Positions 33,427-56,158 of a stretch of 64,000 nt of DNA are shown here, in pieces (within the stretch, counting starts at the first letter, position 1; the number at the start of each line of letters is the position of its first letter). Location: the NCBI GenBank assembly GCA_012401045.1, contig GCA_012401045.1_4704.1; one strand, 5' to 3'. The translations under genes were made by a program, and so were the position numbers. This stretch comes from a phage. The notes below the pieces were generated by a model that did no database searches, was not told the DNA's origin, and worked only from the letters and a program-made list of their open reading frames with translations.

Positions 33427-34137
33427 TCACCCCCTCAGAATCGCTTCTGTTTCGCTGATCGTATCCGCAGGATAAACCAAACTACTATCGATTGCGTTAT
33501 TCACGTAACCACCCATTAAGTTGGTGATGGTGTTTGTACCACTATCGATAATGTTTCGTAATCCGATATCGATGGCTTTTAACGTGCTGCGTTCCTCATC
33601 CGAAAGCAAACGCCATGCTCGACGACGATCGTTGGGGTCACGTGTGGTGATAGAAGCCAGAACAGAATAGATGCTGCTATCCGCATTCAGTTTAACGCCT
33701 GCCAATTTCGCTGACGTGTAGAGCAGCTGATATTTTTCTTTCTCAGTGTACCACCATGGCACTTTACCGAGCGTATAGATCTCGTTATACATCAGCCATG
33801 GGAAAGAGTTTCGCATCACGACATCGGTTGACACCAACACCGTGTCACCGGGAAGAAACACAAACTCATAAAACGGCTGGCCATCCATGGTAATTTCACG
33901 GATGTCAGACGGGTCGATATGGAGCTGGGTCAATGCGTGGCTGACACCATACTGACCATCGGGAAGAATAATCGGGCAGCACGCACAAACCCGGTTCTCA
34001 CTCCCGATGATAGATAAACCCAATCCCTCGTAACGGACGGGTGTCAGAATCGAACACCCGCCACGAGTAACAACAGATTTATCTTCTTGTATGTCCCAGT
34101 CCGCAAGCACCGCAGCACCGTTGCGGACAAGCGCCAT
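33427..34137 (-). CDS. Hypothetical protein (236 aa)
   Basis: ORF; 1-nt gap to neighbours. Confidence 0.65.
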   Translation of the reverse strand: MALVRNGAAVLADWDIQEDKSVVTRGGCSILTPVRYEGLGLSIIGSENRVCACCPIILPDGQYGVSHALTQLHIDPSDIREITMDGQPFYEFVFLPGDTVLVSTDVVMRNSFPWLMYNEIYTLGKVPWWYTEKEKYQLLYTSAKLAGVKLNADSSIYSVLASITTRDPNDRRRAWRLLSDEERSTLKAIDIGLRNIIDSGTNTITNLMGGYVNNAIDSSLVYPADTISETEAILRG

Positions 34138-35969: not shown

Positions 35970-35995
35970 GAGCAGGGGCATGAAGCCCCCTGCTC
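35970..35995 (-). terminator. Intrinsic terminator after the RNAP beta-like gene
   Basis: gagcaggggc/gccccctgctc stem followed on minus strand by GTTTATTTCG; abuts stop codon. Confidence 0.6.
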
Positions 35996-38900
35996 TTATT
36001 TAGCGTCGTTAAAGTAAATATCAACAGCTCGTTCCGTTGCGTAGAGGAGACCAAGATTCACAGTCCCAACCACTTCCGGTGAACCGATGATACGGTTAGC
36101 GATACTGGTGCCACTGAAGATAGCATCAAGGGTGTGCCCGTCTTCGGTTTTGTTCACACCATGACCCACGGAAGAGACAACGGATTTCGCTTGAGCTGCG
36201 AAGGTACCTTTATCGCCCATCCCCGCACCAAGGTCGTAACGCATGAAAATACGGATTGCGATCTGGTTCTCGCCTAACGGATTACCGTCTATTCTCACGT
36301 TACTGTTATTGATACGCCCCGTAGCTGCTTCGTTGAGTTTCAGTTCCTTAACGCGTTTAGCTCGCGCTTTATCTGCATCACCGACGAGCGCCGCCATGGT
36401 TTCACTCATATCCTCAATCTGAGCGCGGTACAACACATCGATCTGTACAACTTCACCATGAACGTCAGCACGTGGGTTATACTGACTCATACGACGTAAT
36501 GCTTCAACGGCTTCCTGACTCTCATCACTCAGATCGGTCGCAATCGGTTCTTCCAGTGTTGCAAGGATCGTTCGTGGTTCAACATGATCGCCGATTTTCA
36601 CGAGACCACGAATGTTGAGATGGGCGTCAACGATGAGCGTACGGCTCTTAATCGATGGTGTTACGAGACGATCGGCAAGATTGTCGAAGATATACGAACT
36701 GTCCTCGTGAGTCTCTGGAATATCCAGAATACCGACAAGAGACAGAACACCTGCGCGCCAAACAACCTGACCTGGGTTCCACCAATCGCGTTTAAAATAA
36801 AGACGATGGAAGACCACCACATCCTGATCCTTAACGCGATCCCCGACTTTATAATCGGTAATAAGATCGTGAGGATAATACTTACCTGGTCCTTTCCCGA
36901 TTATCGTGCCGAGTTGGAAAACCTCTTCTCCTAACTCTGGATCGTCGTATTGTATCGTAAGCGCAGTTTTGGTGACCTTCTTAACAACACCATCGCCTTG
37001 GGCAGCTGCTGCGAAGAGCTTACCAACACGATGCGCGATAACGGTCTCACCGCCGGTGCGCCACGGTTGTACATCGTAACCCTCAGCGGCAATCATGCGG
37101 TTGTGTTGGATCCCGACGAAGACCAGACGTTTTCCATCATCACGGTCTACGGCTGGAACAGCTAACGCCGACGTACTCATTACCGATGAGATACCGTCTG
37201 TCTTTTCATCGAATGGTCGTGTTTCACCATACACCGACACGATATTAGCATTAGGTGCAAGGTAAGCTGAGATACCCACATCCCCACTATCTTTCGTACC
37301 CTCTGACACAATACCAACATCGGACTTGTCGTATTCACGATCACGTGCGCGTCGAAGCGATGTCTTTGAACGACCCCCGATACCGGTCATCGTTGCTTCT
37401 TCACCCTGCTTGATATCCAGCATCGGGTTGGTTTCATCGATCACGATGGACGCGCTGTCGTCGAGAATTTGGTTCCAGACGCTTACCGGACTGATTGAGA
37501 TTTTCTGGCGATTTCCTTGACTGCTGTTCTCATTCTGACGAATAGCGCCAACCAGATCCTTATACACCAATTCAGCGAACTTATCGTACGTTTTAAAACG
37601 TTGGTAGTTCACATCGTTGGTGTTAGGTGCCCAGTCATCCAGAAGCAGTTCAACAGCACGCAGTAACAACATGGCGAAATCGGTAGGTTCTCCCATGTTC
37701 TGTAGCAACGTACGGCTTACCGGATCAACGAAAAGACGCTCCATGAGTTCAAGTTCGCGTAAATGGCGAACCTTAAGTCCAGCACCATCAACAACGTTAA
37801 AATAGATATCTCGATTGTCGAAAGCACCGCGAGCGTAACCGATGTAGTTACGGTATTCGTTAAACCCACCCAGCAACAACGTCGTCATGCGATCGTCTTT
37901 ACTGAAGATCAAACTTTCGTCATCAAAGCTCACCGCGAATTCATCGGGTGCTAATCCCATACGAGAACCGCGAGGTACCGTACGATAGTTCGCTTTAAGA
38001 TGTTCTAATAACGGGGTAAGTCCACCCAGATAACTTAGAACGACACCAACCGGAATACGTACACCCATGAATTCAAGATCGGCGGCTTCGATCGGCATCT
38101 TAGCCGCATTGATACCGAAGAAATCAGGGAACGTCCCTACAGGTGTTGGTGTTTGTCCTGACTGACAGATATAGAGCTGATTGCGTTTATCGATTGCTAA
38201 GAATTCACCCAGCGTGTTACGCGCAAACGTCAGGAGCCCTTCGGCTAACTGTTCGTTGAACCGATCTTCCCCGATGAACTCCGGCAATGTCTTTGTATCG
38301 AGACGTATATCCCAATCAGCAAATTGGATTTGGGTATAGTTGCGTGCAAGCACAGCGAAGTAATACGGGACTTTGACGGCCGGATCAAAGACGTTACCAC
38401 GTTTTAACGTGGTTAAGGGTGAGGACTTATCGTAATACATCGCTGTAAGTTGGCGTGTTAACCAACGACCGGCGTTATTAACGACACGCTCTGAACGTTT
38501 AACAAACACCTTACCGTAGGCGGTACTCAACGCAACTTCGGATGATGATACCTTTCTAATAGGTTTATCAACACGTTGTTTACGCATCCGGTATTTGATG
38601 CCGTTAACGACATAAATGCCGTCCTTACGAACCTTCGGCAACATCACCGGGAACGTGGTTGGGACACCGCCTACAGGGGCCAGTTTAATCGTGATAACTT
38701 GATAATCCCCCATCACGTCAACAACATCTTCAACTTTATATCCCGTGACAGGGTAACCTGCCTGTTGTACGGCAACAACAGCGGCTGCGATGTCCTTTTG
38801 CATCACGTGTTCAACGTAATGTTTATCCCACACCGCAAGCGTCGATTTACATAGGCTCTTATCGACGATAACATCCGCTTCCGGCATAACCTTTGCTGGC

Positions 38901-40342
38901 GCTAATTTCGCGGCTTTTGGTTTAACTTCAACATACTCAGCAAGTGTTAATCCAGAACCGTCGGGTGCTTCGATTTCATGGATGGCGTCGGCATTACGCA
39001 TCGCTGCTTTATATTGGACACCGCTTAACTGACCCGCATCCGCCAGATCGCTCGCGCGCACCAACACCGCATCCGATAACGACTGAATATATTCACCGTG
39101 TGTTTTTGGTAACGTTGCCGCGTCAAAGACATCAACCTTTTCTTCTTCGGTATCGTCGGTAACGACCTCGAAGAGATCGTCGGTAATGTCCTGATCTTCA
39201 TCGGGTTGGAAATCCGGCTGTACTTCTACCCCGGGTACTTCACGGACATCTTCGAACGAGCGTTCTACAATGGCGTTCCACGCATCAGCGTCATCGTCTT
39301 CATCCGACCCACCAACCAACTCCGCTTCTAACTCATCGGGATCAAGAACAGTGGCCAGATCCTCACCGTTAGGAAGCACGACGTCGCGATCATCGTACTC
39401 TGCATCCGGGCTGTCCGCAAGAATATCTCGCTCTTGACGAAGAACCTGTTCCTCTTCTTGTTTCTGTTCTTCTTCATTCGCGCTCTGCGACCATAGACGT
39501 GTTACCGCCATCATCCAACGACGCTGGAAGGTTTCGAGTGTCGTTTTATCGAGTTCTTCCCCTTCCTTTACAAGCCCGGTACGCCATTCTTCCAACAGGC
39601 CGAGATTCAGCGTAAAGAAGTACACGCCGTCTGTAAATACAACGTTAAGCTTATCCAGCGTGGCTCTGTCTAACGAAGCCATCGTGCTGTTCTCACGATC
39701 GGTTCCCAGCCAGCGGAAGAAGTCAAAGAACGACAGCTCCTCCGGCGTAGCGAAATTCATGAGGTTGTTACGGGTCGGTGCCTGTTGCGTGGTACGCATC
39801 AACGAAATCTTCGGCAATGTTGACGGTATACGGAACAACAGAAAGTGTTGGCGATCGCTTTGCTGCGCGATTTCGTTGGCTTTCGACCAAATTGTTTTAC
39901 GTACGTTGAACCATTCATCATACCAACGGGTGAGCGTTGGACGATAGATGTACATGTGGTTAAGATGTGCGTAGTTAGCAACGATCTGAGCGTTGATGTT
40001 TTTCTCCACCGTACTTAGATCGGTAACCAAACGAAAACGACGATGTGACGCACGATAATCCAATTTCGCTCGTGGGAGCTGGAATCGCTGATCACGTCGA
40101 GGTGCACCCTGTTTGGTTGCGAGATCATCAGCAAACGAAATCCATAGTTGAGCACTTTCTTTACTCAACATGTATTCGTTTTCTGGAGGACCTATCAATG
40201 AAGGATCCGTTGCGGTGTAATGATAGACAGCATAACGTGGCAGCTGCAATAGCTGCACTAAACGTAATCTCGGTGACAATAGCTCTTGGTAGCGTCTGAC
40301 GCCAAACTGTCGGTAGTAATCAAGGTATTTAAGTTTTGCCAT
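35996..40342 (-). CDS. Multisubunit RNA polymerase beta-like subunit (1448 aa)
   Basis: IVSVYGETRPFDEKTDGISSVMSTSALAVP (cf. E. coli beta [32 protein letters not shown]), GMGDKGTFA and EDGHTLDAIFSGTSIANRIIG (cf. beta RHGNKGV / DIVLNPLGVPSRMNIGQ), E. coli comparisons from memory. Confidence 0.65.
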   Translation of the reverse strand: MAKLKYLDYYRQFGVRRYQELLSPRLRLVQLLQLPRYAVYHYTATDPSLIGPPENEYMLSKESAQLWISFADDLATKQGAPRRDQRFQLPRAKLDYRASHRRFRLVTDLSTVEKNINAQIVANYAHLNHMYIYRPTLTRWYDEWFNVRKTIWSKANEIAQQSDRQHFLLFRIPSTLPKISLMRTTQQAPTRNNLMNFATPEELSFFDFFRWLGTDRENSTMASLDRATLDKLNVVFTDGVYFFTLNLGLLEEWRTGLVKEGEELDKTTLETFQRRWMMAVTRLWSQSANEEEQKQEEEQVLRQERDILADSPDAEYDDRDVVLPNGEDLATVLDPDELEAELVGGSDEDDDADAWNAIVERSFEDVREVPGVEVQPDFQPDEDQDITDDLFEVVTDDTEEEKVDVFDAATLPKTHGEYIQSLSDAVLVRASDLADAGQLSGVQYKAAMRNADAIHEIEAPDGSGLTLAEYVEVKPKAAKLAPAKVMPEADVIVDKSLCKSTLAVWDKHYVEHVMQKDIAAAVVAVQQAGYPVTGYKVEDVVDVMGDYQVITIKLAPVGGVPTTFPVMLPKVRKDGIYVVNGIKYRMRKQRVDKPIRKVSSSEVALSTAYGKVFVKRSERVVNNAGRWLTRQLTAMYYDKSSPLTTLKRGNVFDPAVKVPYYFAVLARNYTQIQFADWDIRLDTKTLPEFIGEDRFNEQLAEGLLTFARNTLGEFLAIDKRNQLYICQSGQTPTPVGTFPDFFGINAAKMPIEAADLEFMGVRIPVGVVLSYLGGLTPLLEHLKANYRTVPRGSRMGLAPDEFAVSFDDESLIFSKDDRMTTLLLGGFNEYRNYIGYARGAFDNRDIYFNVVDGAGLKVRHLRELELMERLFVDPVSRTLLQNMGEPTDFAMLLLRAVELLLDDWAPNTNDVNYQRFKTYDKFAELVYKDLVGAIRQNENSSQGNRQKISISPVSVWNQILDDSASIVIDETNPMLDIKQGEEATMTGIGGRSKTSLRRARDREYDKSDVGIVSEGTKDSGDVGISAYLAPNANIVSVYGETRPFDEKTDGISSVMSTSALAVPAVDRDDGKRLVFVGIQHNRMIAAEGYDVQPWRTGGETVIAHRVGKLFAAAAQGDGVVKKVTKTALTIQYDDPELGEEVFQLGTIIGKGPGKYYPHDLITDYKVGDRVKDQDVVVFHRLYFKRDWWNPGQVVWRAGVLSLVGILDIPETHEDSSYIFDNLADRLVTPSIKSRTLIVDAHLNIRGLVKIGDHVEPRTILATLEEPIATDLSDESQEAVEALRRMSQYNPRADVHGEVVQIDVLYRAQIEDMSETMAALVGDADKARAKRVKELKLNEAATGRINNSNVRIDGNPLGENQIAIRIFMRYDLGAGMGDKGTFAAQAKSVVSSVGHGVNKTEDGHTLDAIFSGTSIANRIIGSPEVVGTVNLGLLYATERAVDIYFNDAK

Positions 40343-40345
40343 GGG

Positions 40346-41992
40346 TTAGGCTCCACGAGGTCCCGTTAAGTTGCGTAATAGGAACGCAACCGTATCGTAA
40401 CCAATATCGATGTTGAATTTATTTTTACCACTTACCCAGAAAGCTCGCTTCTTGTGCGAGTTGGTAATTTCGTCAATAGCTTCCATGGAATAAAGAACGT
40501 TAACCGAGACCGTATCACCATCAAAGTCCCCACCAAGTCCGGCGAGGTATGGCGCAGGGACAATAGTCGTTTCTACGAACGAAGCATTAGGTAACCAGTC
40601 GGGGTATTCCCATGCGATAAATCGTTCATCCGTTATTGGTTCCCAGTTACTATCCAGTTCGGTTTTCGGTTTTGCGGCGACGGTTGTACGTGCGTAACAG
40701 GTTAACGGGATAACGGATTGCATACCTGATACCGGATAACGTGTTACCATCGCAGCCAGGTTATTCCAGTACTTATATCCGGCAATATAGATAAGCTCGG
40801 TGTAAGTAATGGGGTGAACATCCGCGCCAGGTTTATTCAACATCTCCGGGGGTAATTCACTCATGCCACGGAATAACCGAAACGAATCGTTGTTCACATA
40901 GACGAGGCAAAGATATCGTCCATTGACCATGATAGGCTCGTTACGCACGCCAGGATCGCTTAAGGTGTTCAGTAAACGTTCTATTCCGTCCCATGTTGTA
41001 AAGTCATCGATGGTGTCTGGATCAAGCGTGACGCGCTCACGTTCCATCGTTTCGGTATCAGTAAGTTCAACTTCTGTAACATCACGGACAAATATTTCCT
41101 GCAAAATACCGGTACGTAACGCATGTTGCGTTACTGGGAGAGCGGCTTTACTCATCTGGTATAACCCTAACTGAACCGCGGTACAGGAAGGCTGGTTAGG
41201 CGACCCTAATACCTCCGTTGTGGGGTTAATTGCCGAAATAACGTTACGGGTTGAGTTCCAAACGCGACGTGAACCAAACTTACCTTGGAAGATCCCTTTC
41301 TTACCCTGGAACATATCCAACAGTAAAGCGTAGATATCGTTGAATGTTCTCTGTAAGCTCCAGCGCTGGCCGTCGTAAACGGGATCGGAATAATCTTTTA
41401 ATCCATCAGGGACGGTGTTAGAAATTGCAAGGAAACGACGATACAACTCCGTGATTTCTTGCTCGCTTTCATACCCACCTTCTTTTACTTCTATTTCACG
41501 TAAGCCTGCAGGCAATACCAGTAAGTGACGGGTCATCGCTTTGAACATGTTCTCTTCGACAACTTTAATTCGTAGCTCTCGTTGAGCTGAACCCGTTGAA
41601 ACGAACTTGATATCCGCGACGTGTTGTGCAAAGAACCCGTATCCTGTTTGTCCTGTTAATGCATCAGACGCAACGAAGTCGCGTTGTTCGGGATCCCACC
41701 GAGCGTACGCCTTCCCCGACATGATATCGCCATAGAGGTGTTTTAATCGAATGAGACGGTCGTAAATGACAGGATGCAGGATTTCAACCTTGCATTCAAT
41801 CACCGCAAATCGACGGTCTCGATCTTCACTACCCGCACTACCAAAGATGGTGTAAGAATAGAAACCATCATCGTGGAAATTACCGGTGCTTGGGTCACGA
41901 ATGCTCATGCTCGTGATCTTGGGGAGAAAACGTAACTGCTGTTTATCGAGGTGTAAAATACTAATATTAAACGGCTCTCTGACTTTAGCCAT
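40346..41992 (-). CDS. Multisubunit RNA polymerase beta-prime N-terminal-half homolog (about 548 aa)
   Basis: C-terminal GGDFDGDTVSVNV (beta-prime NADFDGD catalytic motif), GKKGIFQGKFGSRRVWNSTRNVISAINP (cf. LLGKRVDYSGRSVIVVGP), RRFAVIECKVEILHPVIY; start ATG 41992 with SD AAGAGGAG. Confidence 0.8.
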   Translation of the reverse strand: MAKVREPFNISILHLDKQQLRFLPKITSMSIRDPSTGNFHDDGFYSYTIFGSAGSEDRDRRFAVIECKVEILHPVIYDRLIRLKHLYGDIMSGKAYARWDPEQRDFVASDALTGQTGYGFFAQHVADIKFVSTGSAQRELRIKVVEENMFKAMTRHLLVLPAGLREIEVKEGGYESEQEITELYRRFLAISNTVPDGLKDYSDPVYDGQRWSLQRTFNDIYALLLDMFQGKKGIFQGKFGSRRVWNSTRNVISAINPTTEVLGSPNQPSCTAVQLGLYQMSKAALPVTQHALRTGILQEIFVRDVTEVELTDTETMERERVTLDPDTIDDFTTWDGIERLLNTLSDPGVRNEPIMVNGRYLCLVYVNNDSFRLFRGMSELPPEMLNKPGADVHPITYTELIYIAGYKYWNNLAAMVTRYPVSGMQSVIPLTCYARTTVAAKPKTELDSNWEPITDERFIAWEYPDWLPNASFVETTIVPAPYLAGLGGDFDGDTVSVNVLYSMEAIDEITNSHKKRAFWVSGKNKFNIDIGYDTVAFLLRNLTGPRGA

Positions 41993-42237
41993 GGAGACAC
42001 TCCTCTTTACCACCACCGGCTGCGGCGGTATCATCTGAACACACGAGAGACGTAATGGGTGATGGCGTCACCCATCGCTTCCTTGCTTGAGGCGAGGAAG
42101 TTATTAGGTTACGTACCTGCCTGATTTTATCAGGTGGGCGATGTGTGAAGTTACGCTTCAACATTATCAATGCCGAAGGTAAACTTCGTGCATCACGTTC
42201 CAACGTAACATGGGAACGTATCGAACTGGAGGTATAC

Positions 42238-45200
42238 ATGGTAGATAAAACCCGTGTTGAGGGTGATGATAATTGGGACAACTGGGATGAAGACTTCTCC
42301 CTGGATCTCGATTTTAACGAACCCAAAGACGATCGTAAACCGATAACACGCTTTGCGATAGGAGCGGTTAAAGGTGCTGCTGAGGATCTTACTTCCTACG
42401 AAAGAATGAAGGAGATCGCCAGAAACGCATTGCCTAAGGGCTACAGCGACGGTATGGATCTTATTGATTCCGCCGTCGGATCCACGAAGGAACTATACAA
42501 TGAAGCCGTTCGTGACGTTCTTCCTAAGGTCCAAAGCTCAAAACGGTTAGCCGCACAACTGACCAAGAAATACCGTGCGAGCATGCCCGATTTCTCGAAG
42601 AAAATTCTTGAGCAATGGGAGCGAGAAGCCAAGGAAGAAGACGAACGTAAACAAGCTGAAGAAACCCTTCGTCAACGCATGGCGAGCGCGGGGGACGATG
42701 AGATCGCCCGCAAGGTTGCCGAGGCATTAGGCGAATCAGCAAACCAAAGCGCGGATCAGTTCGCTGAACAGCAAGCGAAAGAGAGTATCCGTGACGATAT
42801 CGCTGACAAACGGTACGCTGTAACCAACAAACAAATGAGTGCGATGCAAGAAGGCGTCGCCAAGATGGTTGGTTTCAACAATGAATTCGCTGCACGCTAC
42901 ATGCGTAAAAGCCTGGAACTGAAATATCGTTCCTTAGCGATTCAACGTGCAAGTTTTGATCAGCATAAAAAGTTAGCCGAAGTCTATATCGGTTTATTAC
43001 AAAACATCCAGAAGAATACGGCTTTACCTGATGCGGCTAAAGCAAAAATGTCGGAAGAATTCCGCCGTAGCGCGTACCAACGTTTCTTTGGTAATGCGTT
43101 AGATGCGATGAGTTCTTTCGAGAACCGTTTCTTTGCCGATGTTAAGAAAAACCTTGCCACCAACGCATTAGGTGCTTTAAAAGGCGTCGTGTCTGGCGCA
43201 AACGATGCGTTATACGGTTTAAACGAAGCACGTGACTCGATATCCATGATGGATGGGATGGGGTCAGATGGCGATATTAAGGAAATGCAAGGAAAGATGT
43301 TGGGTCAGTTCATTGGCTCAACTGTCGCACCATGGATGGCTAATAAAGGCAGGATGGCGTTACGCGATTTAGCAAAACGTCACCCCAATGCTAAATTCGC
43401 TAGCGCGTTAAAAGCCGTGGATCAAGGTGGTGAGGCTGCCGCTTACACAACGCGTAATCTCGGTAAACTGCTCCAGGAAGATATTCGTAAGAACGAATTC
43501 AATCTTAGCGATCCGTTTTACAAGCAATTGTTACGCGGTGCAGGGCGTTGGGCGTTCAACATGGACAGCGGACGTAACTTCCGCGTGATGAACGACACCG
43601 CTGAAACACTGGCAGAGCAAACATCTTTCGACGGTTTAACCTACCGCAGCATCAACGAGGTTATTCCAGGCTTTCTTGCACGCATTCTGAAAAGCAGTGA
43701 AGGCATCCGCACCGGAAACAGCGATCCTGACTACGAGGTCTATGACGGCATCAGCGGGCAATTCGTGTCTCAGCGCACGCGTGAGCAAAGCGTCAACGAC
43801 ACGCTGTTTAACAAACGTTCATTTGGTTATTACGCCAGCCGTTTCAACGAGGTTATCTCGGTCATCGATCCCGATAAGCAATTATCGGAAAAAGCCAGGA
43901 AGGCACTGGCTAAACAGTTGGCACGAGATAGCGACGCGAACATCGCATTCGACCCGGCTCGTTTTACGGATGAAAGCAACTTCGATCGTAGTATCGACCG
44001 TGACGCTATTAAGGAACTTTCCACGTACTTTCGTGACCGTTACGGTATTCGTGACGATATCAACGATAAGGGGGAACGTCATCAGGTCATTGGAAACCGC
44101 GGGCAATATTACACGGAACGTAACCGAGCCGATCTTCGTTACGGTAATCTGAAATCTTTACAACCGGATATCCAGCGTAACCTTAACCTGCTGAAACGTA
44201 CTGGTGACGTCCAATATCTGGAACGGATCGGGATTGTAACGAGAAATAGCGACGGAAGTTACTCGGTTAATCACGATAGGTATTTCTCTGAAATCGATCG
44301 GTACATCGACCGGCCGGAGTACGCTGACCGCGGCGATGTTAATACGCGATTAACCGCTCAGGAAACAAGAGCGCTGGCGCTGGGTTATCGTGACGCAAAA
44401 CCATCAGCTGGTGACGTCCAAAATGTCGGCCTGCCGAACATCGGTCGTAAGGCTGCTGGAACAGTAACCGTTGATGAAAACATCGGCTACGATAAATGGT
44501 GGAACGACACAGGTGTTATCACCACATCGCTTGAAGAACAGAATCGAGCGTGGCAAGAGCTTTATCTCGAGGCGTTGTCCGAAGCATCCGAACAACGTGT
44601 TGAAATGCTTGCGCTGCTGAAAGCCATTTCTGAGAAAGACTGGTCTAATAACGTTTCGCTGGATGGTGAAGATGTACCTGAAGGTACAGCACCCATTTCA
44701 TTTATCGATCGTGCCAAACAAAAACTCGGCGGACGCAACCTGTTTAAAGGCGGCCGCAATCTCCTCTGGAAAGGAATTAAAAATACCGCACGTTTAGGTG
44801 TTAAAGGCGCACGCTGGGGTGCAGAACGCACGTTGGGTAGTTTGGTAAATTCTGGCCGACGCATTATCAATTTCAACCGCTTCGTGTTCGGCGCATTATC
44901 CAAGGTTGATCAGGTTCCGTTTGACATTTACGTTAAAGGGGAATCCCAACCACGCATATTGGTTGCTAAACTTCGTCAGGGGTTATACTTCGATGAAGCG
45001 ACAGGAAAAGCCGTAAAACGGATGAAGGATATCAAAGGCCCACTCGTTGATGCGGATGGAAACATCGTAATCAGCAACGAGGATATCGAGAAAGGGTTGG
45101 TCACTCGCGCTGGTCGTGCCTTTGAGAATTCAGGACTTAAAGCATGGGCACGTGAAGGTCTTAATGGAATAACGACGGCATTAAGTCTCCCACGGATGTT

Positions 45201-48200
45201 AAAACGCGGTGCGGTTGAGATCTACAAACAGCTTGACAAAACACCCGACGTTTACGTCAAGGGAGAATCAACGCCTCGTCTGTTGTCCATGGTGTTAGCA
45301 GCGGGTGGGTATTTCCGTCGCTCGGATGGACAAGTCATCAAAAATCTTGAAGACATCGATGGTGATGTTGTTGATGCACAAGGTAACGTCGTACTTACGC
45401 TTGCCGACATGCAGAAAGGACTTGTCGATAAATACGGTAAAGCGATTCGTCGTTTAAAAGAAAAGCTCATCAACTTCGGTGTAAAAGCTTTTACGTTACC
45501 GTTAACGTTGCTACGTAAGACAAAGGACATCCTTAAAGCCCTTCCAGGTAAAACCGTTAACGGTCTACGGCGGATGGGATTAAATTTCCAATCACCTGAC
45601 GCGTTACTGGTGGGAACAACGTCGAGCATGGTAGATCGCCTCGATGCTATTTACCAGCTTCTTGACCAGCGTATGCCGGGAGGTGATAAGGATTACCGCG
45701 ATTGGAATGGCGATGGTGTTCGAGAAGGATCGTTGGAAGACCTGAAACGTAAGCGTGAAGCCAAGGAAAACGGTAAGGATGACATCGGCAAAGATTCCAA
45801 TAAAGGAGAAGAAAAGGAGAAGAAACGAGGGTTACTCGGAAGCCTTTTCGATATGCTCGGTGATACCGCAATAGGTAAACGTCTCATGGCGAGTCCGCTT
45901 GGAAAAATTCTGGGTGGTCTTGGGGCGGTGTTAAGCGGCGGTGCGTCGTTAACTGGGTTGTTGGGCAAAGGTCTCATTAGAGGAACCGGCGCGCTGGTCA
46001 AGGGAGGACTAAGTGCGGCAGGATGGTTAGGACGTGGTGCGTTAATGGCGGGTGGGGCCGCGTTGAACGCCGTTGGTGGGTTATCGGGATTAGGTGCATT
46101 CCTCATCTCACCTGTTGGGCTTGCTATCGCTGGCGGTGCGTTGGCTGCTTATGCTGGATGGAAGATCTATCAGCATTTCGCCGAGAAGCCTGACCCGATG
46201 CAGAAGCTCCGTCTTATTGCATACGGTGCAAAAGGGGACGATAAAGACTTCAATAAGAAGCTGCTTGCGACAGAAACATACCTCACCGACCATGTGGTTA
46301 TGACCGGGGATACCATCGGATTCGATCCGAAAGCCGACTCGGAAAAGATTCTCGAAATCTGGGAATTGTCTCTGGAAGATTCCGACCGAATGAACGAATG
46401 GAAACGCTGGTATCTGCATCGTTTTATTCCTGTTTTCGCTCGCGCGTACAAACTCTGGAAAGAGCATATGCCGGACGAGAAGAAATACATGGAAATGGAT
46501 AAATATCCGAACGGTGAGAACAAAGTGAAATGGTCGGAAGCGTTTATCTGGCCTTCCGATAGTCCTGATGGTCCGTATTACGTCGAAGCTAACCCGTTGG
46601 GTTCTTCTGGTGCGACGCGTTATATTGCTGGTCAAGACGTCAAAACCTTGATGCTGAAACAACTCGAAGCCATCAAGAAAGAGTACCAGAATCAGATTAA
46701 GCAATACACTCATGATGAGGCTATTGCTGATTGGTCACGGATGTCTGACACACAACGTAAATCCGTTGCGCCTAACGCATTACGTGGTCAGAAAGCGTCA
46801 TTACGTTTTAACGATAAACGTTACAACAGCGCTGGTGCTAAAGGACGACAGAAACTGGATGCAACCGCGGTTATTGAAAGCGTAGACCGCCGTGGTAGGA
46901 AATGGGTTGCCGGTGGATACATCGATGAACTCACCAGTCTTCGTGTTCGTGCGTACGGTATTAAGGTTCCGTTGTTAAGTCAGATAAAAGTGCTGATGGA
47001 ACTTGAAGACGCTGTAGAACCTGGCGTTGTCGCTGAAGGTAAAGGTGTTAAATACGGTGGCGATCTTGTCGCGCTCTACAAGAAATTCGCGACGAAGTTC
47101 GGAAGAGACGTTAACAGCAAGCATGATCAGGATATCTGGTTTGCTTGGATGAACAACCGTTTCCTGCCCGTCTTTTTAACCTATTACCAACAAGTTAGCG
47201 ACATGGGCGGTCAAGGACTTCTGTCCGACGTGGTACAGAACCTGAAAGACAGCCAACGCTGGGAAATCGGTGAAGCACTTGTCGCAACGCAATACCGTGA
47301 TGAGAAAGGTACACTGCAGCCTGTATGGTCCTGGAATAGTTGTGGTTTCTCCGGTACTGAAGCTAACACCACCAGCAGTTCAACAAAGAGCCAACTCGAT
47401 CTGTTAAAAGAATATGCGGATAAAGAGAAGGTTCGTGAGAAGAACGCGGAAGCATCGCAAGAGGATACCGATAAATTATCGAAGATCCAAGAGCTGATGA
47501 TGAAGCAGGCTGGGTACGAGAAGAAAGACGGTGTCTGGCAGAAGAAATCTCGCATTACCGGCGGGATGAGTAACTCCGAAGCGAATTACAACCCCAATAG
47601 GAATAAGGTCGGTGAAAGCAGCTTTACGGCTTCGGCTACTTCCAATGCGGGATTAGGGTCAACCGGCGATCTTACCGGATTGCCTAACATGGGCTTACAG
47701 AAACCTGCAATGGGACCAGGTCCTGAAGCTGGACGTCGTGCGCTTGTTAAATCCGCTGTAAAACGCGGCATTACCGATCCGATGGAAATGGCGATGTTCC
47801 TTGCGAACATCGAACATGAATCGGGGAACTACACTCACGTACGTGAGGGGAACTATAAGACACCAGAGCGTCTTAAACAGGTCTTCCCTTACAAATTCCG
47901 TGATGTGCAGGATGCCGCACAGACGATCAGCATGGGTCCGGAAGTGGTATTCGAACGTGTGTATGGTAATCGTAAAGATCTCGGAAACACACAGAAAGGA
48001 GACGGGGCGAAGTATTTAGGACGTGGCTTCATTCAGGTTACCGGTAAAGCTAACTACGCTCGTCTGTCCAAGACCTTGAATAAGGATCTTGTCAGCGATC
48101 CGACCTACCTGGAAACGCCGGAAGGTGCAGCGGAAGGTAGTGTCGCATGGTGGCTCAACCGAGGTAACGTATTACGCGATCCCGCAAAACGGGGTGACGT

Positions 48201-48903
48201 ACGCCAAGTTCGTTATCTAGTTAACGGTGGCTATAACGGATTACGTGATGTTGAACAACGTTCTGCATATTGGATTCAGGCAGCTAAGAATGGCACCCTG
48301 AAGAAAATGATGGACGAGTTATCAGGGTCAACATCAGACGATCAAGCTGAAGGACCGACCACTGCCGAACAGGTGAAGAACGAAGCAGCACAAGAGGCAA
48401 ACGGAACACCTGCTGTAAGCAACGATCCGCAAGCCCCAGTATCTTCTACCACCCCTGAAGCTAAACCGTCTGCGGCTGCCGGGACGGCCCCAGCACCTGG
48501 GGAAGCATCACCAACGCCTGGAAGTTTCGAAACAGCAAAAGCCGCGGCAGGACAACCGACATCAACTCCAGCACCTAGCGATTTGCCGTCAAACCCAGGC
48601 GCAAATCGAGGGATATCGGTTCCGAATACACCTGCACAGGTTGCGCAGTCTGCGACACAAACGTCGGCTGCAAGTGAGAACTTCTACGGTAGCGCAGGTG
48701 AAATTCTCCGACAGCAGCTGACCACACAGCAGAACATCGAGAAGAACACCGGTAGAACGAATGAACTTATTTCGGAATTAATCCAAGCCGTTAAGGGTTC
48801 TTCTATCGGTAAGGGTTCTGCAAGTCCTTCTCAACAACAGACGATGTCACTACCTAATCGTCCGCAAGGAATCTCTCCAACACGGACAAGGTACGCACAG
48901 TAG
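42238..48903 (+). CDS. Giant virion-associated protein (about 2221 aa) with C-terminal-region GH19/lysozyme-like peptidoglycan hydrolase domain
   Basis: [10 protein letters not shown] ... [32 protein letters not shown] motif (GH19-type); Gly-zipper hydrophobic segment; internal ~109-aa tandem repeat; Pro/Ala/Ser/Thr-rich tail; start ATG 42238 with SD GGAGGT. Confidence 0.8.
   Translation: [2221 protein letters not shown]
44917..45570 (+). repeat. Internal tandem duplication (2 x about 109 codons) inside the giant gene
   Basis: [19 protein letters not shown]...[18 protein letters not shown] versus [18 protein letters not shown]...[18 protein letters not shown]. Confidence 0.6.
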
Positions 48904-55483: not shown

Positions 55484-56158
55484 TTAGCCCTCATCAAGGT
55501 TATTCTGGAGATGCATCGCGGTGAGGATAACGCCAACCGCCGAAACCGATTTTGCCTTGCTGTCTTCAGGGAGCTGCTCCAAGCTTACGGTACCTGTTTC
55601 TAACAGCATGCGGTTCATTGCGTTGAACTTCTTATCGTCACCACCACGAGCCTGCATCAGCTCTCGGTTCACGTTCGGCATCGACCGTCCTAACGTCGCT
55701 TGCATTTCCGGCTGGCTCCAAGTGGAACCTTTACTATCACCCGTCGGCTGATTGGTGAGCTGGTCCTTGGTGTTGTTGTTTTTCGGAATCGAAATTTTAG
55801 CACTCAACGTTTCGGCTTGTCGGCGGTTTGGAATCAGGTACAATCTGGTTGGGCGGTCACGAAGCACCAATTGCCCTGTTTTCTGGTCGGTGAGATAAAT
55901 GCGTTGGAAGAAAGGGAAACCGTATTTCTTACCGACTTCCAACGCACGTTTTATCGTCACCTCGTTTTTGTTCATGTTGGGTACCCAGATGGGTAGAATC
56001 TCTTTCTTATCCCGACATAAACGCATATAGGCATCAAACGTCTCATCATCGATTTCAGCAAAACGTTTTTTGTAAATAGCGTAAGTCGGGCTCGATTCAC
56101 CCACCAGGTCTTTGATATACCCAAGAATGAATTTTTCTGCTGCAGCGCGGTTGGACAT
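55484..56158 (-). CDS. Hypothetical protein (224 aa)
   Basis: ORF. Confidence 0.6.
   Translation of the reverse strand: MSNRAAAEKFILGYIKDLVGESSPTYAIYKKRFAEIDDETFDAYMRLCRDKKEILPIWVPNMNKNEVTIKRALEVGKKYGFPFFQRIYLTDQKTGQLVLRDRPTRLYLIPNRRQAETLSAKISIPKNNNTKDQLTNQPTGDSKGSTWSQPEMQATLGRSMPNVNRELMQARGGDDKKFNAMNRMLLETGTVSLEQLPEDSKAKSVSAVGVILTAMHLQNNLDEG

Follow-up and report, generated by a model that had tools for sequence, protein, structure and literature searches.

The open reading frame (ORF) at positions 40346 to 41992, on the minus strand of a 64,000-nucleotide stretch of phage DNA (GenBank assembly GCA_012401045.1, contig GCA_012401045.1_4704.1; the whole stretch is referred to here as the window), very probably encodes β′N, the N-terminal β′ subunit of the virion RNA polymerase (vRNAP) of a Goslar-like chimallivirus, that is, of a nucleus-forming jumbo phage of E. 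coli or Salmonella. An earlier interpretation of this DNA from its letters alone (the sequence-only reading) had described the ORF as the N-terminal half of an RNA polymerase (RNAP) β′ subunit that stops shortly after the DFDGD catalytic loop, indicating a split β′ of the phiKZ type. The gene is defined as follows.

40346..41992, minus strand: coding sequence (CDS) assigned to the vRNAP β′ N-terminal subunit, 548 aa, stop codon TAA at 40348..40346; ortholog of Goslar gp205, phiKZ gp180 and SPN3US gp240
42000..42006, minus strand: Shine-Dalgarno sequence AGAGGAG, 7 nt upstream of the ATG at 41992; the Goslar annotation has the same start
40514..40528, minus strand: DFDGD codons GAC TTT GAT GGT GAT, residues 489-493; predicted Mg2+-binding loop of double-psi beta-barrel A

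A minus-strand ORF of 562 aa (40346..42034) contains the 548-aa CDS, and the coordinates in the sequence-only reading are exactly those of this CDS plus its stop. We favour the start at ATG 41992 over that at 42034 because of the AGAGGAG site upstream of it and because it is the annotated start of Goslar gp205. The reality of the gene is confirmed far beyond chance. The 562-aa ORF matches PHROG 2986 ('RNA polymerase beta subunit') over positions 17-557 with E=4e-179, 630 homologs of the 548-aa protein were found in a database search, and the codon differences from Goslar gp205 comprise 75 synonymous and 2 non-synonymous changes, implying purifying selection. The β′ motif cited in the sequence-only reading, GGDFDGDTVSVNV, is present in the translated protein. 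The stop does come shortly after DFDGD, as had been proposed, but at a distance of 55 residues from the last D of the motif (49 from 'VNV') rather than about 30.

Three independent tests support the view that the protein is an N-terminal fragment of β′. In the first, a family profile built from 66 members was searched against the PDB. It matched the β′N subunit of the AR9 non-virion RNAP (nvRNAP; chain 7s00_d, E=2e-15), plastid/cyanobacterial rpoC1 (7e-9) and E. coli β′ (1.5e-7); the matches are separate collinear stretches over the 'RNVI' region and DFDGD. A phmmer search of the PDB likewise found the AR9 subunit and plastid/cyanobacterial RpoC1. In the second test, hhalign placed residues 40-254 on E. 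coli β′ 52-357 (E=3e-8) and, with the C-terminal 109 residues, aligned 476-545 with E. coli β′ 447-516 without a gap (E=7.6e-7). In the third, an AlphaFold2 model (predicted local distance difference test score, pLDDT, 85.3) was compared with known structures by Foldseek, the best matches being 7s00_d (E=5e-17), the Synechocystis γ subunit and bacterial β′, with probability 1.00 in each case. Relatives in other phages are numerous: a tblastn search with β′N matched 312 phage records, among them those of phiKZ-like Pseudomonas phages (38% identity over residues 1-544) and of Erwinia phage RAY, whose homolog is annotated 'vRNAP beta' subunit 1'.

The hhalign comparison also showed that the phage family lacks 28 residues, the gap coinciding exactly with E. 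coli β′ 68-95, the zinc ribbon. No Cys cluster equivalent to the N-terminal zinc-binding element (E. coli C70/C72/C85/C88) was found in β′N by this comparison. The deletion, common to the whole phage family, falls at window positions 41830..41870, β′N residues ~42-55 (FG-SAGSEDRDRRF).

The phage itself can be placed closely. Megablast of 35996..42034 gave a single match, Escherichia phage vB_EcoM_Goslar, at 96% identity over 100% of the query, and collinearity extends over the whole window, which corresponds to Goslar 171.2-237.3 kb at ~97% nucleotide identity. Goslar belongs to the Chimalliviridae and is a phiKZ-like, nucleus-forming jumbo phage. The matched segment spans 8083 bases in Goslar, compared with 6039 in the window, and the sole large indel between the two lies inside the β′N gene. 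Once the Goslar intron is removed, the protein is identical to Goslar gp205 (HOV27_gp205, YP_009820914.1) at 546 of 548 residues; the genes are ~95% identical at the nucleotide level (80 of 1647 positions differ), with the same start, stop and neighbours. By position and identity, Goslar gp205 corresponds to 40346..41992, gp207 to 35996..40342, gp210 to 33427..34137 and gp196 to 55484..56158. These four proteins, together with gp78, are the five vRNAP subunits identified in Goslar virions by liquid chromatography-tandem mass spectrometry (bioRxiv 10.64898/2026.04.21.720040). Across 80 related loci from IMG/VR the gene order is g204(-), β′N, βN, g209, g210.

The other predicted vRNAP genes of the window, and a terminator, are these.

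35996..40342, minus strand: CDS of the predicted vRNAP β N-terminal subunit (βN), 1448 aa; Goslar gp207, phiKZ gp178, SPN3US gp241; recognised by profile and hhalign
35970..35995, minus strand: intrinsic-terminator-like hairpin (9 bp, 7 of them GC) followed by a T-rich run, directly past the βN stop; annotated as a terminator in Goslar
55484..56158, minus strand: CDS of the predicted vRNAP β C-terminal subunit (βC), 224 aa; Goslar gp196, SPN3US gp218; PHROG 3233, E=1e-65
33427..34137, minus strand: CDS of the putative C-terminal-most β′ piece (β′C), 236 aa; Goslar gp210, phiKZ gp176, SPN3US gp244; 100% identical to Goslar gp210

For the 1448-aa protein phmmer gave no match in the PDB, and a family profile was needed; this matched T. 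thermophilus β with E=3e-9, and hhalign placed residues 967-1417 on E. coli β 514-1106, including the DRDD motif (EHDD) and the GDK motif. Direct homolog searches returned 3 matches for βN and 3 for the gp210-like protein, and homologs of both were gathered from the 80 IMG/VR loci instead. The small number for βN is probably due to an acidic low-complexity insert that saturates the word candidates. Detectable similarity of βN to bacterial β begins only at ~residue 964-967, past residues 1-~960, and an acidic low-complexity stretch (EEEQKQEEEQ...DEDDDAD) occupies ~290-400, within the N-terminal two thirds. The βC protein was placed on E. coli β 1160-1311 by hhalign (E=9.8e-5), and its family profile gave a weak match in the PDB (E=0.04). 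Homologs of βC also occur as the C-terminal ~220 residues of metagenomic proteins of 1100-1430 aa (P0190, P0242, P0214, P0194, P0266), which suggests that some lineages have a fused βN-βC or an unsplit β.

The 236-aa protein belongs, on the sequence comparisons, to the gp244/gp176 family: its gene is syntenic in 65 of the 80 loci and tblastn finds homologs in 275 phage records, SPN3US-like and PhiPA3 phages among them. Goslar gp210 is found in virions and is counted as the fifth vRNAP subunit (bioRxiv 10.64898/2026.04.21.720040). In SPN3US, gp244 was put forward as the C-terminal-most piece of β′ on genetic and proteomic grounds, with weak hidden Markov model support (E=0.05). The fifth gene is that for β′M. 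In Goslar it is gp78, located at 88 kb of the record and 433 aa in length. It shows similarity to β′ 758-824, the bridge-helix region, and to AR9 β′C, and is the counterpart of the β′ portion that the sequence-only reading had advised seeking elsewhere in the genome. That reading had recognised no C-terminal half of β′ in the window. For the main part, equivalent to gp78, it was right; it overlooked the putative β′C at 33427..34137 as well as the partner subunits βN and βC, and with the putative β′C included four of the five vRNAP genes fall within the window. The lengths of the five pieces (β′N 548, βN 1448, βC 224, β′M ~433 from Goslar gp78 and putative β′C 236 aa) appear to mirror the architecture of the SPN3US enzyme (519, 1401, 222, 431 and 240 aa, respectively).

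Could the protein instead belong to the nvRNAP, the enzyme of middle and late transcription, as a β′N subunit of the phiKZ gp55 or AR9 gp270 type? The best match among solved structures is indeed AR9 nvRNAP β′N, and no vRNAP chain is found among the PDB matches. Against this, the Goslar ortholog, 99.6% identical, was detected in virions and is listed as a vRNAP subunit, and the RAY homolog carries a vRNAP annotation. The adjoining 1448-aa βN with its long non-β N-terminal extension is the vRNAP arrangement, as in SPN3US gp240-gp241. The second β′ PHROG, 2987, matches the window protein weakly (E=1.5e-5, compared with 4e-179 for PHROG 2986), and identity to AR9 chain d is 14%. Goslar, moreover, has a separate β′-like gene, gp247, annotated as similar to the RNAP β′ subunit, which lies just outside the window. 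We regard an nvRNAP role as very improbable.

Several observations weigh against assignment as a vRNAP β′N subunit. Identity to cellular β′ is only ~12-14%. The Foldseek template modelling scores (TM-scores) for the β′N model are low, at 0.30-0.35, because the model is of a free multi-domain subunit, whose domains are not arranged as in the complex. A Pfam scan of β′N gave no RNAP family, even at E<=10, and the RNA_pol_Rpb1 models at their gathering threshold gave no match, since the protein is too divergent for curated models. Scans of βN, βC and the gp210-like protein were likewise without any RNAP family; these negatives are not taken against RNAP identity because the profile, HH and fold comparisons are positive. 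For β′N, a profile search limited to Pfam would have misled, and the positive outcome comes from the family profile, PHROG and HH comparisons. No homolog of Goslar gp78 was found in the window by tblastn, the β′M gene of this phage lying outside it. The β′ similarity of the putative β′C could not be reproduced: the family profile had no match in the PDB, hhalign against E. coli β′ gave no significant match (E=0.51), and an AlphaFold2 model from a 3-sequence alignment reached a pLDDT of 42. Virion packaging and activity, finally, are transferred from Goslar, phiKZ and SPN3US; phiKZ gp180 is present in virions and is injected, and SPN3US gp240 is found in heads.

How would such a subunit function? 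The 548-aa polypeptide spans the equivalent of E. coli β′ ~52-519. This part comprises the clamp and lid regions as well as double-psi beta-barrel A, whose DFDGD triad is predicted to hold the catalytic Mg2+. Its end represents a natural, ancient split just past the helix that follows barrel A. The rest of β′ would then be supplied in trans, by a ~433-aa β′M encoded far away (Goslar gp78, with the bridge helix) and probably, for the C-terminal part, by the ~236-aa putative piece at 33427..34137. β′N would be co-transcribed, and probably translationally coupled, with the downstream βN, which would contribute barrel B with its GDK motif. By analogy with phiKZ, SPN3US and Goslar, the five pieces may assemble in the cytoplasm, enter the capsid and be injected with the DNA, and the injected vRNAP may then transcribe early genes independently of the host RNAP. 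What the present analysis itself establishes is the homology, the fold, the motif, the conserved end, the synteny and the partner subunits.

The position of the split is well conserved. We assessed it in ~200 relatives, comprising 120 proteins and the 80 IMG/VR loci, at 37-44% identity. In roughly 100 of the best 120 homologs (~40% identity) the tail after D[FY]DGD is 50-65 residues long, and across the 80 loci the tail after DFDGD is mostly 50-59 aa. The family profile ends where the AR9 β′N chain 7s00_d ends, with 22 positions left on both sides, and in the ungapped hhalign alignment the end of the window protein corresponds to E. coli β′ ~519. Since the end is kept in most of these relatives and maps to a defined point in E. 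coli β′, we take the split to be natural. A split β′ like that of the phiKZ-type RNAPs, as advanced in the sequence-only reading, is thus borne out by the conserved end, by the downstream ORF being β, and by the match to published vRNAP β′N subunits. The two-piece division which that reading implied does not hold, because vRNAP β′ is probably cut into three pieces, β′N, β′M and the putative β′C.

Is this also the split of cyanobacteria and plastids? A review describes the split after double-psi beta-barrel A (DPBB-A), shared by the β′ of vRNAP and nvRNAP, as one that 'coincides' with the cyanobacterial split. In the profile alignment, plastid RpoC1 runs ~187 residues past DFDGD, compared with 55 for the window protein, and linear mapping puts the phage end ~130 residues before the RpoC1/RpoC2 junction, so that the two do not fall at equivalent points. 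The alignments suggest that the phage and cyanobacterial/plastid splits lie in the same region after DPBB-A, at different residues; the published wording appears to be only approximately true.

The close junction with the next gene raises the question of whether the early stop could be an artefact or a pseudogene (a frameshift, nonsense change or assembly error), the true gene running on into a fused C-terminal half of β′. At 40340..40348 the sequence reads TAA CCC ATG, the βN start lying 3 nt past the β′N stop in the same frame, and one altered base would be enough to join the ORFs. The downstream ORF, however, is homologous to β (E. coli β 514-1106), not β′, so the frame does not lead into a β′ C-terminal half, an outcome that would have spoken against the sequence-only reading. 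The stop position is kept in most of the ~200 relatives, with the next gene found in all three frames; the exact 548-aa protein represents 235 member sequences on independent contigs; and SPN3US mass spectrometry shows separate polypeptides. The chance of an artefact or pseudogene is in our judgement negligible.

A related proposal is that programmed readthrough of TAA-CCC-ATG yields a minor β′N/βN fusion, which would help to nucleate assembly in an enzyme that has no alpha subunits. In the window, one stop codon and one further codon are indeed all that separate the two ORFs, which are in frame with each other; a 3-nt spacer is also implied by tblastn coordinates for Goslar and for the relatives L004 and L006, and these RNAPs lack an alpha-like assembly platform. 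In the 80 IMG/VR loci, however, where the next gene is a β-like ORF mostly -4 to +48 nt away, frames 0, 1 and 2 all occur, many with an ATGA overlap. Because the frame relationship is not conserved, we take TAA CCC ATG as a sign of translational coupling and not of readthrough. A good GGAG Shine-Dalgarno sequence for βN, at 40351..40354 and 8 nt upstream of its ATG, allows independent or coupled initiation, and no fusion has been reported in the virion proteomics of Goslar or SPN3US. TAA is, moreover, the most efficient stop codon. Readthrough therefore seems a very poor prospect. No terminator hairpin was found between the β′N and βN genes, and the hairpin at 35970..35995 closes this two-gene unit. 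A scan for sigma-70 promoters gave 7 sites, compared with 8.7 expected, a background level that is to be expected of a phage that uses its own RNAPs.

The large indel that distinguishes the window from Goslar falls within the catalytic motif itself. The Goslar gene carries an insertion of 2044 nt exactly past codon 489, which places it between D and F of the DFDGD motif: exon 1 ends ...GGC GGT GAT and exon 2 begins TTC GAC GGT GAT, the 5′ exon ending in U and the intron in G. Rfam identifies the insertion as a group I intron (67.7 bits), and it encodes gp206, an endonuclease with HNH_3 and NUMOD1 domains. The deposited Goslar gp205 CDS (NC_048170.1 213756..215264, 502 aa) reads into the intron, ending ...GGDQGKANKMPVFWQI*, and so is without FDGD and the last 59 residues; removal of the intron and use of the unannotated exon 2 (211574..211753) restores the 548-aa protein. 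In the window, where the Rfam scan found no group I intron anywhere, the homing site is empty, at the boundary between 40526 and 40525 (codons D489 and F490). The window reads GGTGGGGAC before and TTTGATGGT after this boundary, and Goslar with the intron deleted reads GGCGGTGAT and TTCGACGGT. The same codon boundary is occupied in the near-identical locus L006, by a group I intron of 510 nt without an endonuclease, and in the distant loci L058, L065, L070, L073 and L076, and ~10% of the database homologs of β′N are truncated directly after GAD. The D/F boundary of DFDGD is thus a recurrent homing site for group I introns, two of which lie as follows.

L001, 10531..12574: group I intron at the D/F boundary
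L006, 11468..11977: group I intron at the D/F boundary

With introns so common in these genes (Goslar β′N; βN in L004 and L006), the end of the window ORF might itself be an exon boundary, with an overlooked intron and a further β′ exon added by splicing. The absence of any group I intron in the window by Rfam and the 3 nt that separate the stop from the βN start argue against this, and the C-terminal 59 residues are those of Goslar exon 2, with the same stop. We consider a hidden exon extremely unlikely. We thus rejected all four alternatives considered: that the ORF is a pseudogene or an artefact of assembly, that it ends at an exon boundary, that it encodes an nvRNAP subunit, and that readthrough produces a fusion.

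A second homing site lies in βN. Its 'DRDD' site (D1068-D1069, window ~37135..37140) is empty in both the window and Goslar, and is occupied by group I introns in L004 (14858..16443), L006 (15368..15831) and several distant loci. Since L004 and L006 are 99-100% identical relatives that carry βN introns, and the window and Goslar do not, the presence of introns is mosaic among near-identical phages. Another recurrent interruption of βN occurs near residue ~594 (window ~38560, invariant P594/K597) in the seven distant loci L012, L020, L043, L053, L054, L069 and L070, and is presumably a further intron or endonuclease site.

The empty site in β′N is marked by its codons. Writing the D/F boundary as a slash, intron-free alleles (the window and L004) have GGT GGG GAC/TTT GAT and intron-containing alleles have ...GAT/TTC GA[CT]. 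Between the window (GGT GGG GAC/TTT GAT) and Goslar (GGC GGT GAT/TTC GAC) there are five consecutive synonymous third-position changes, in codons 487-491, the longest run of differing codons in the gene (permutation P=0.023). It is conceivable, if rather doubtful, that the window carries a recoded allele that resists Goslar gp206, and that the codons of the vRNAP catalytic loop are an active battleground of intron-mediated interference competition between nearly identical chimalliviruses of E. coli and Salmonella, as shown for PhiPA3 gp210 at the βN 'DRDD' site. Alternatively, the five changes may have arrived with the intron as a co-conversion tract, in which case the window allele would be fully susceptible. 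The PhiPA3 gp210 intron homes at the βN 'DRDD' site (phiKZ gp178 D1072) and mediates interference competition (Birkholz et al. 2024, PMC11620839). It resembles the Goslar element, both being group I introns that encode an HNH endonuclease and interrupt a chimallivirus vRNAP gene at codons of the catalytic region; it differs in lying in βN, whereas the Goslar element lies in β′N, and the window has empty sites of both kinds. Intron-plus and intron-minus DFDGD alleles in phages that are ~95-97% identical could offer a natural setting, with E. coli as host, in which to test competition driven by homing endonucleases.

On the other side of β′N, a divergently transcribed gene (42145..48903, plus strand) encodes a protein of 2252 aa and is a conserved neighbour in all 80 related loci. 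The protein, probably a cell-wall hydrolase associated with the virion, has a GH19/endolysin-like domain at ~1866-2094 and matches PHROG 181 (E=6e-53) and PHROG 3201 ('tail fiber protein').

We conclude that the window β′N is a known protein of a known kind, and that the interpretation in the sequence-only reading was right and the finding ordinary. Split β/β′ virion RNAPs are already published as a hallmark of the phiKZ-like jumbo phages that form a nucleus, and the vRNAP β′N of phiKZ-type phages has already been described as SPN3US gp240 and phiKZ gp180 (PMC5105663, PMC7598289, PMC10612078). A protein two substitutions away from Goslar gp205, a proteomically confirmed vRNAP subunit, carries little weight as a discovery. 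Its value is for annotation: it provides the correct and uninterrupted 548-aa sequence of the Goslar type, where the deposited Goslar CDS is truncated in the intron, and it fixes the split at E. coli β′ ~519. What is mildly novel is limited to the intron homing site inside the DFDGD codons, which is empty here and synonymously recoded.

Finally, the closest known systems differ from the window protein in distinct ways. phiKZ gp180, SPN3US gp240 and the RAY subunit belong to one family with it, at 34-41% identity across residues 1-544 and with sizes of 519-550 aa, DFDGD near the C-terminus and a gene that adjoins a ~1400-aa βN; only sequence divergence and host differ. The phiKZ-like phages fMGyn-Pae01 and U5 match residues 1-489 only, being truncated at the codon where Goslar has its intron. 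AR9 nvRNAP β′N (PDB 7S00/7S01, chain d) is the best profile and fold match and has an equivalent end past D[FY]DGD; it belongs, however, to a non-virion enzyme of a distant uracil-DNA Bacillus phage, with ~14% identity and a chain ~100 residues shorter. The cyanobacterial gamma subunit and plastid RpoC1, of which 8gzh_D and 8qma_T are strong structural matches to the window β′N, show a natural split past double-psi barrel A, with DFDGD in the N-terminal piece. Unlike these, the phage β′ is probably cut a second time, between β′M and the putative β′C, and is without the N-terminal zinc ribbon.

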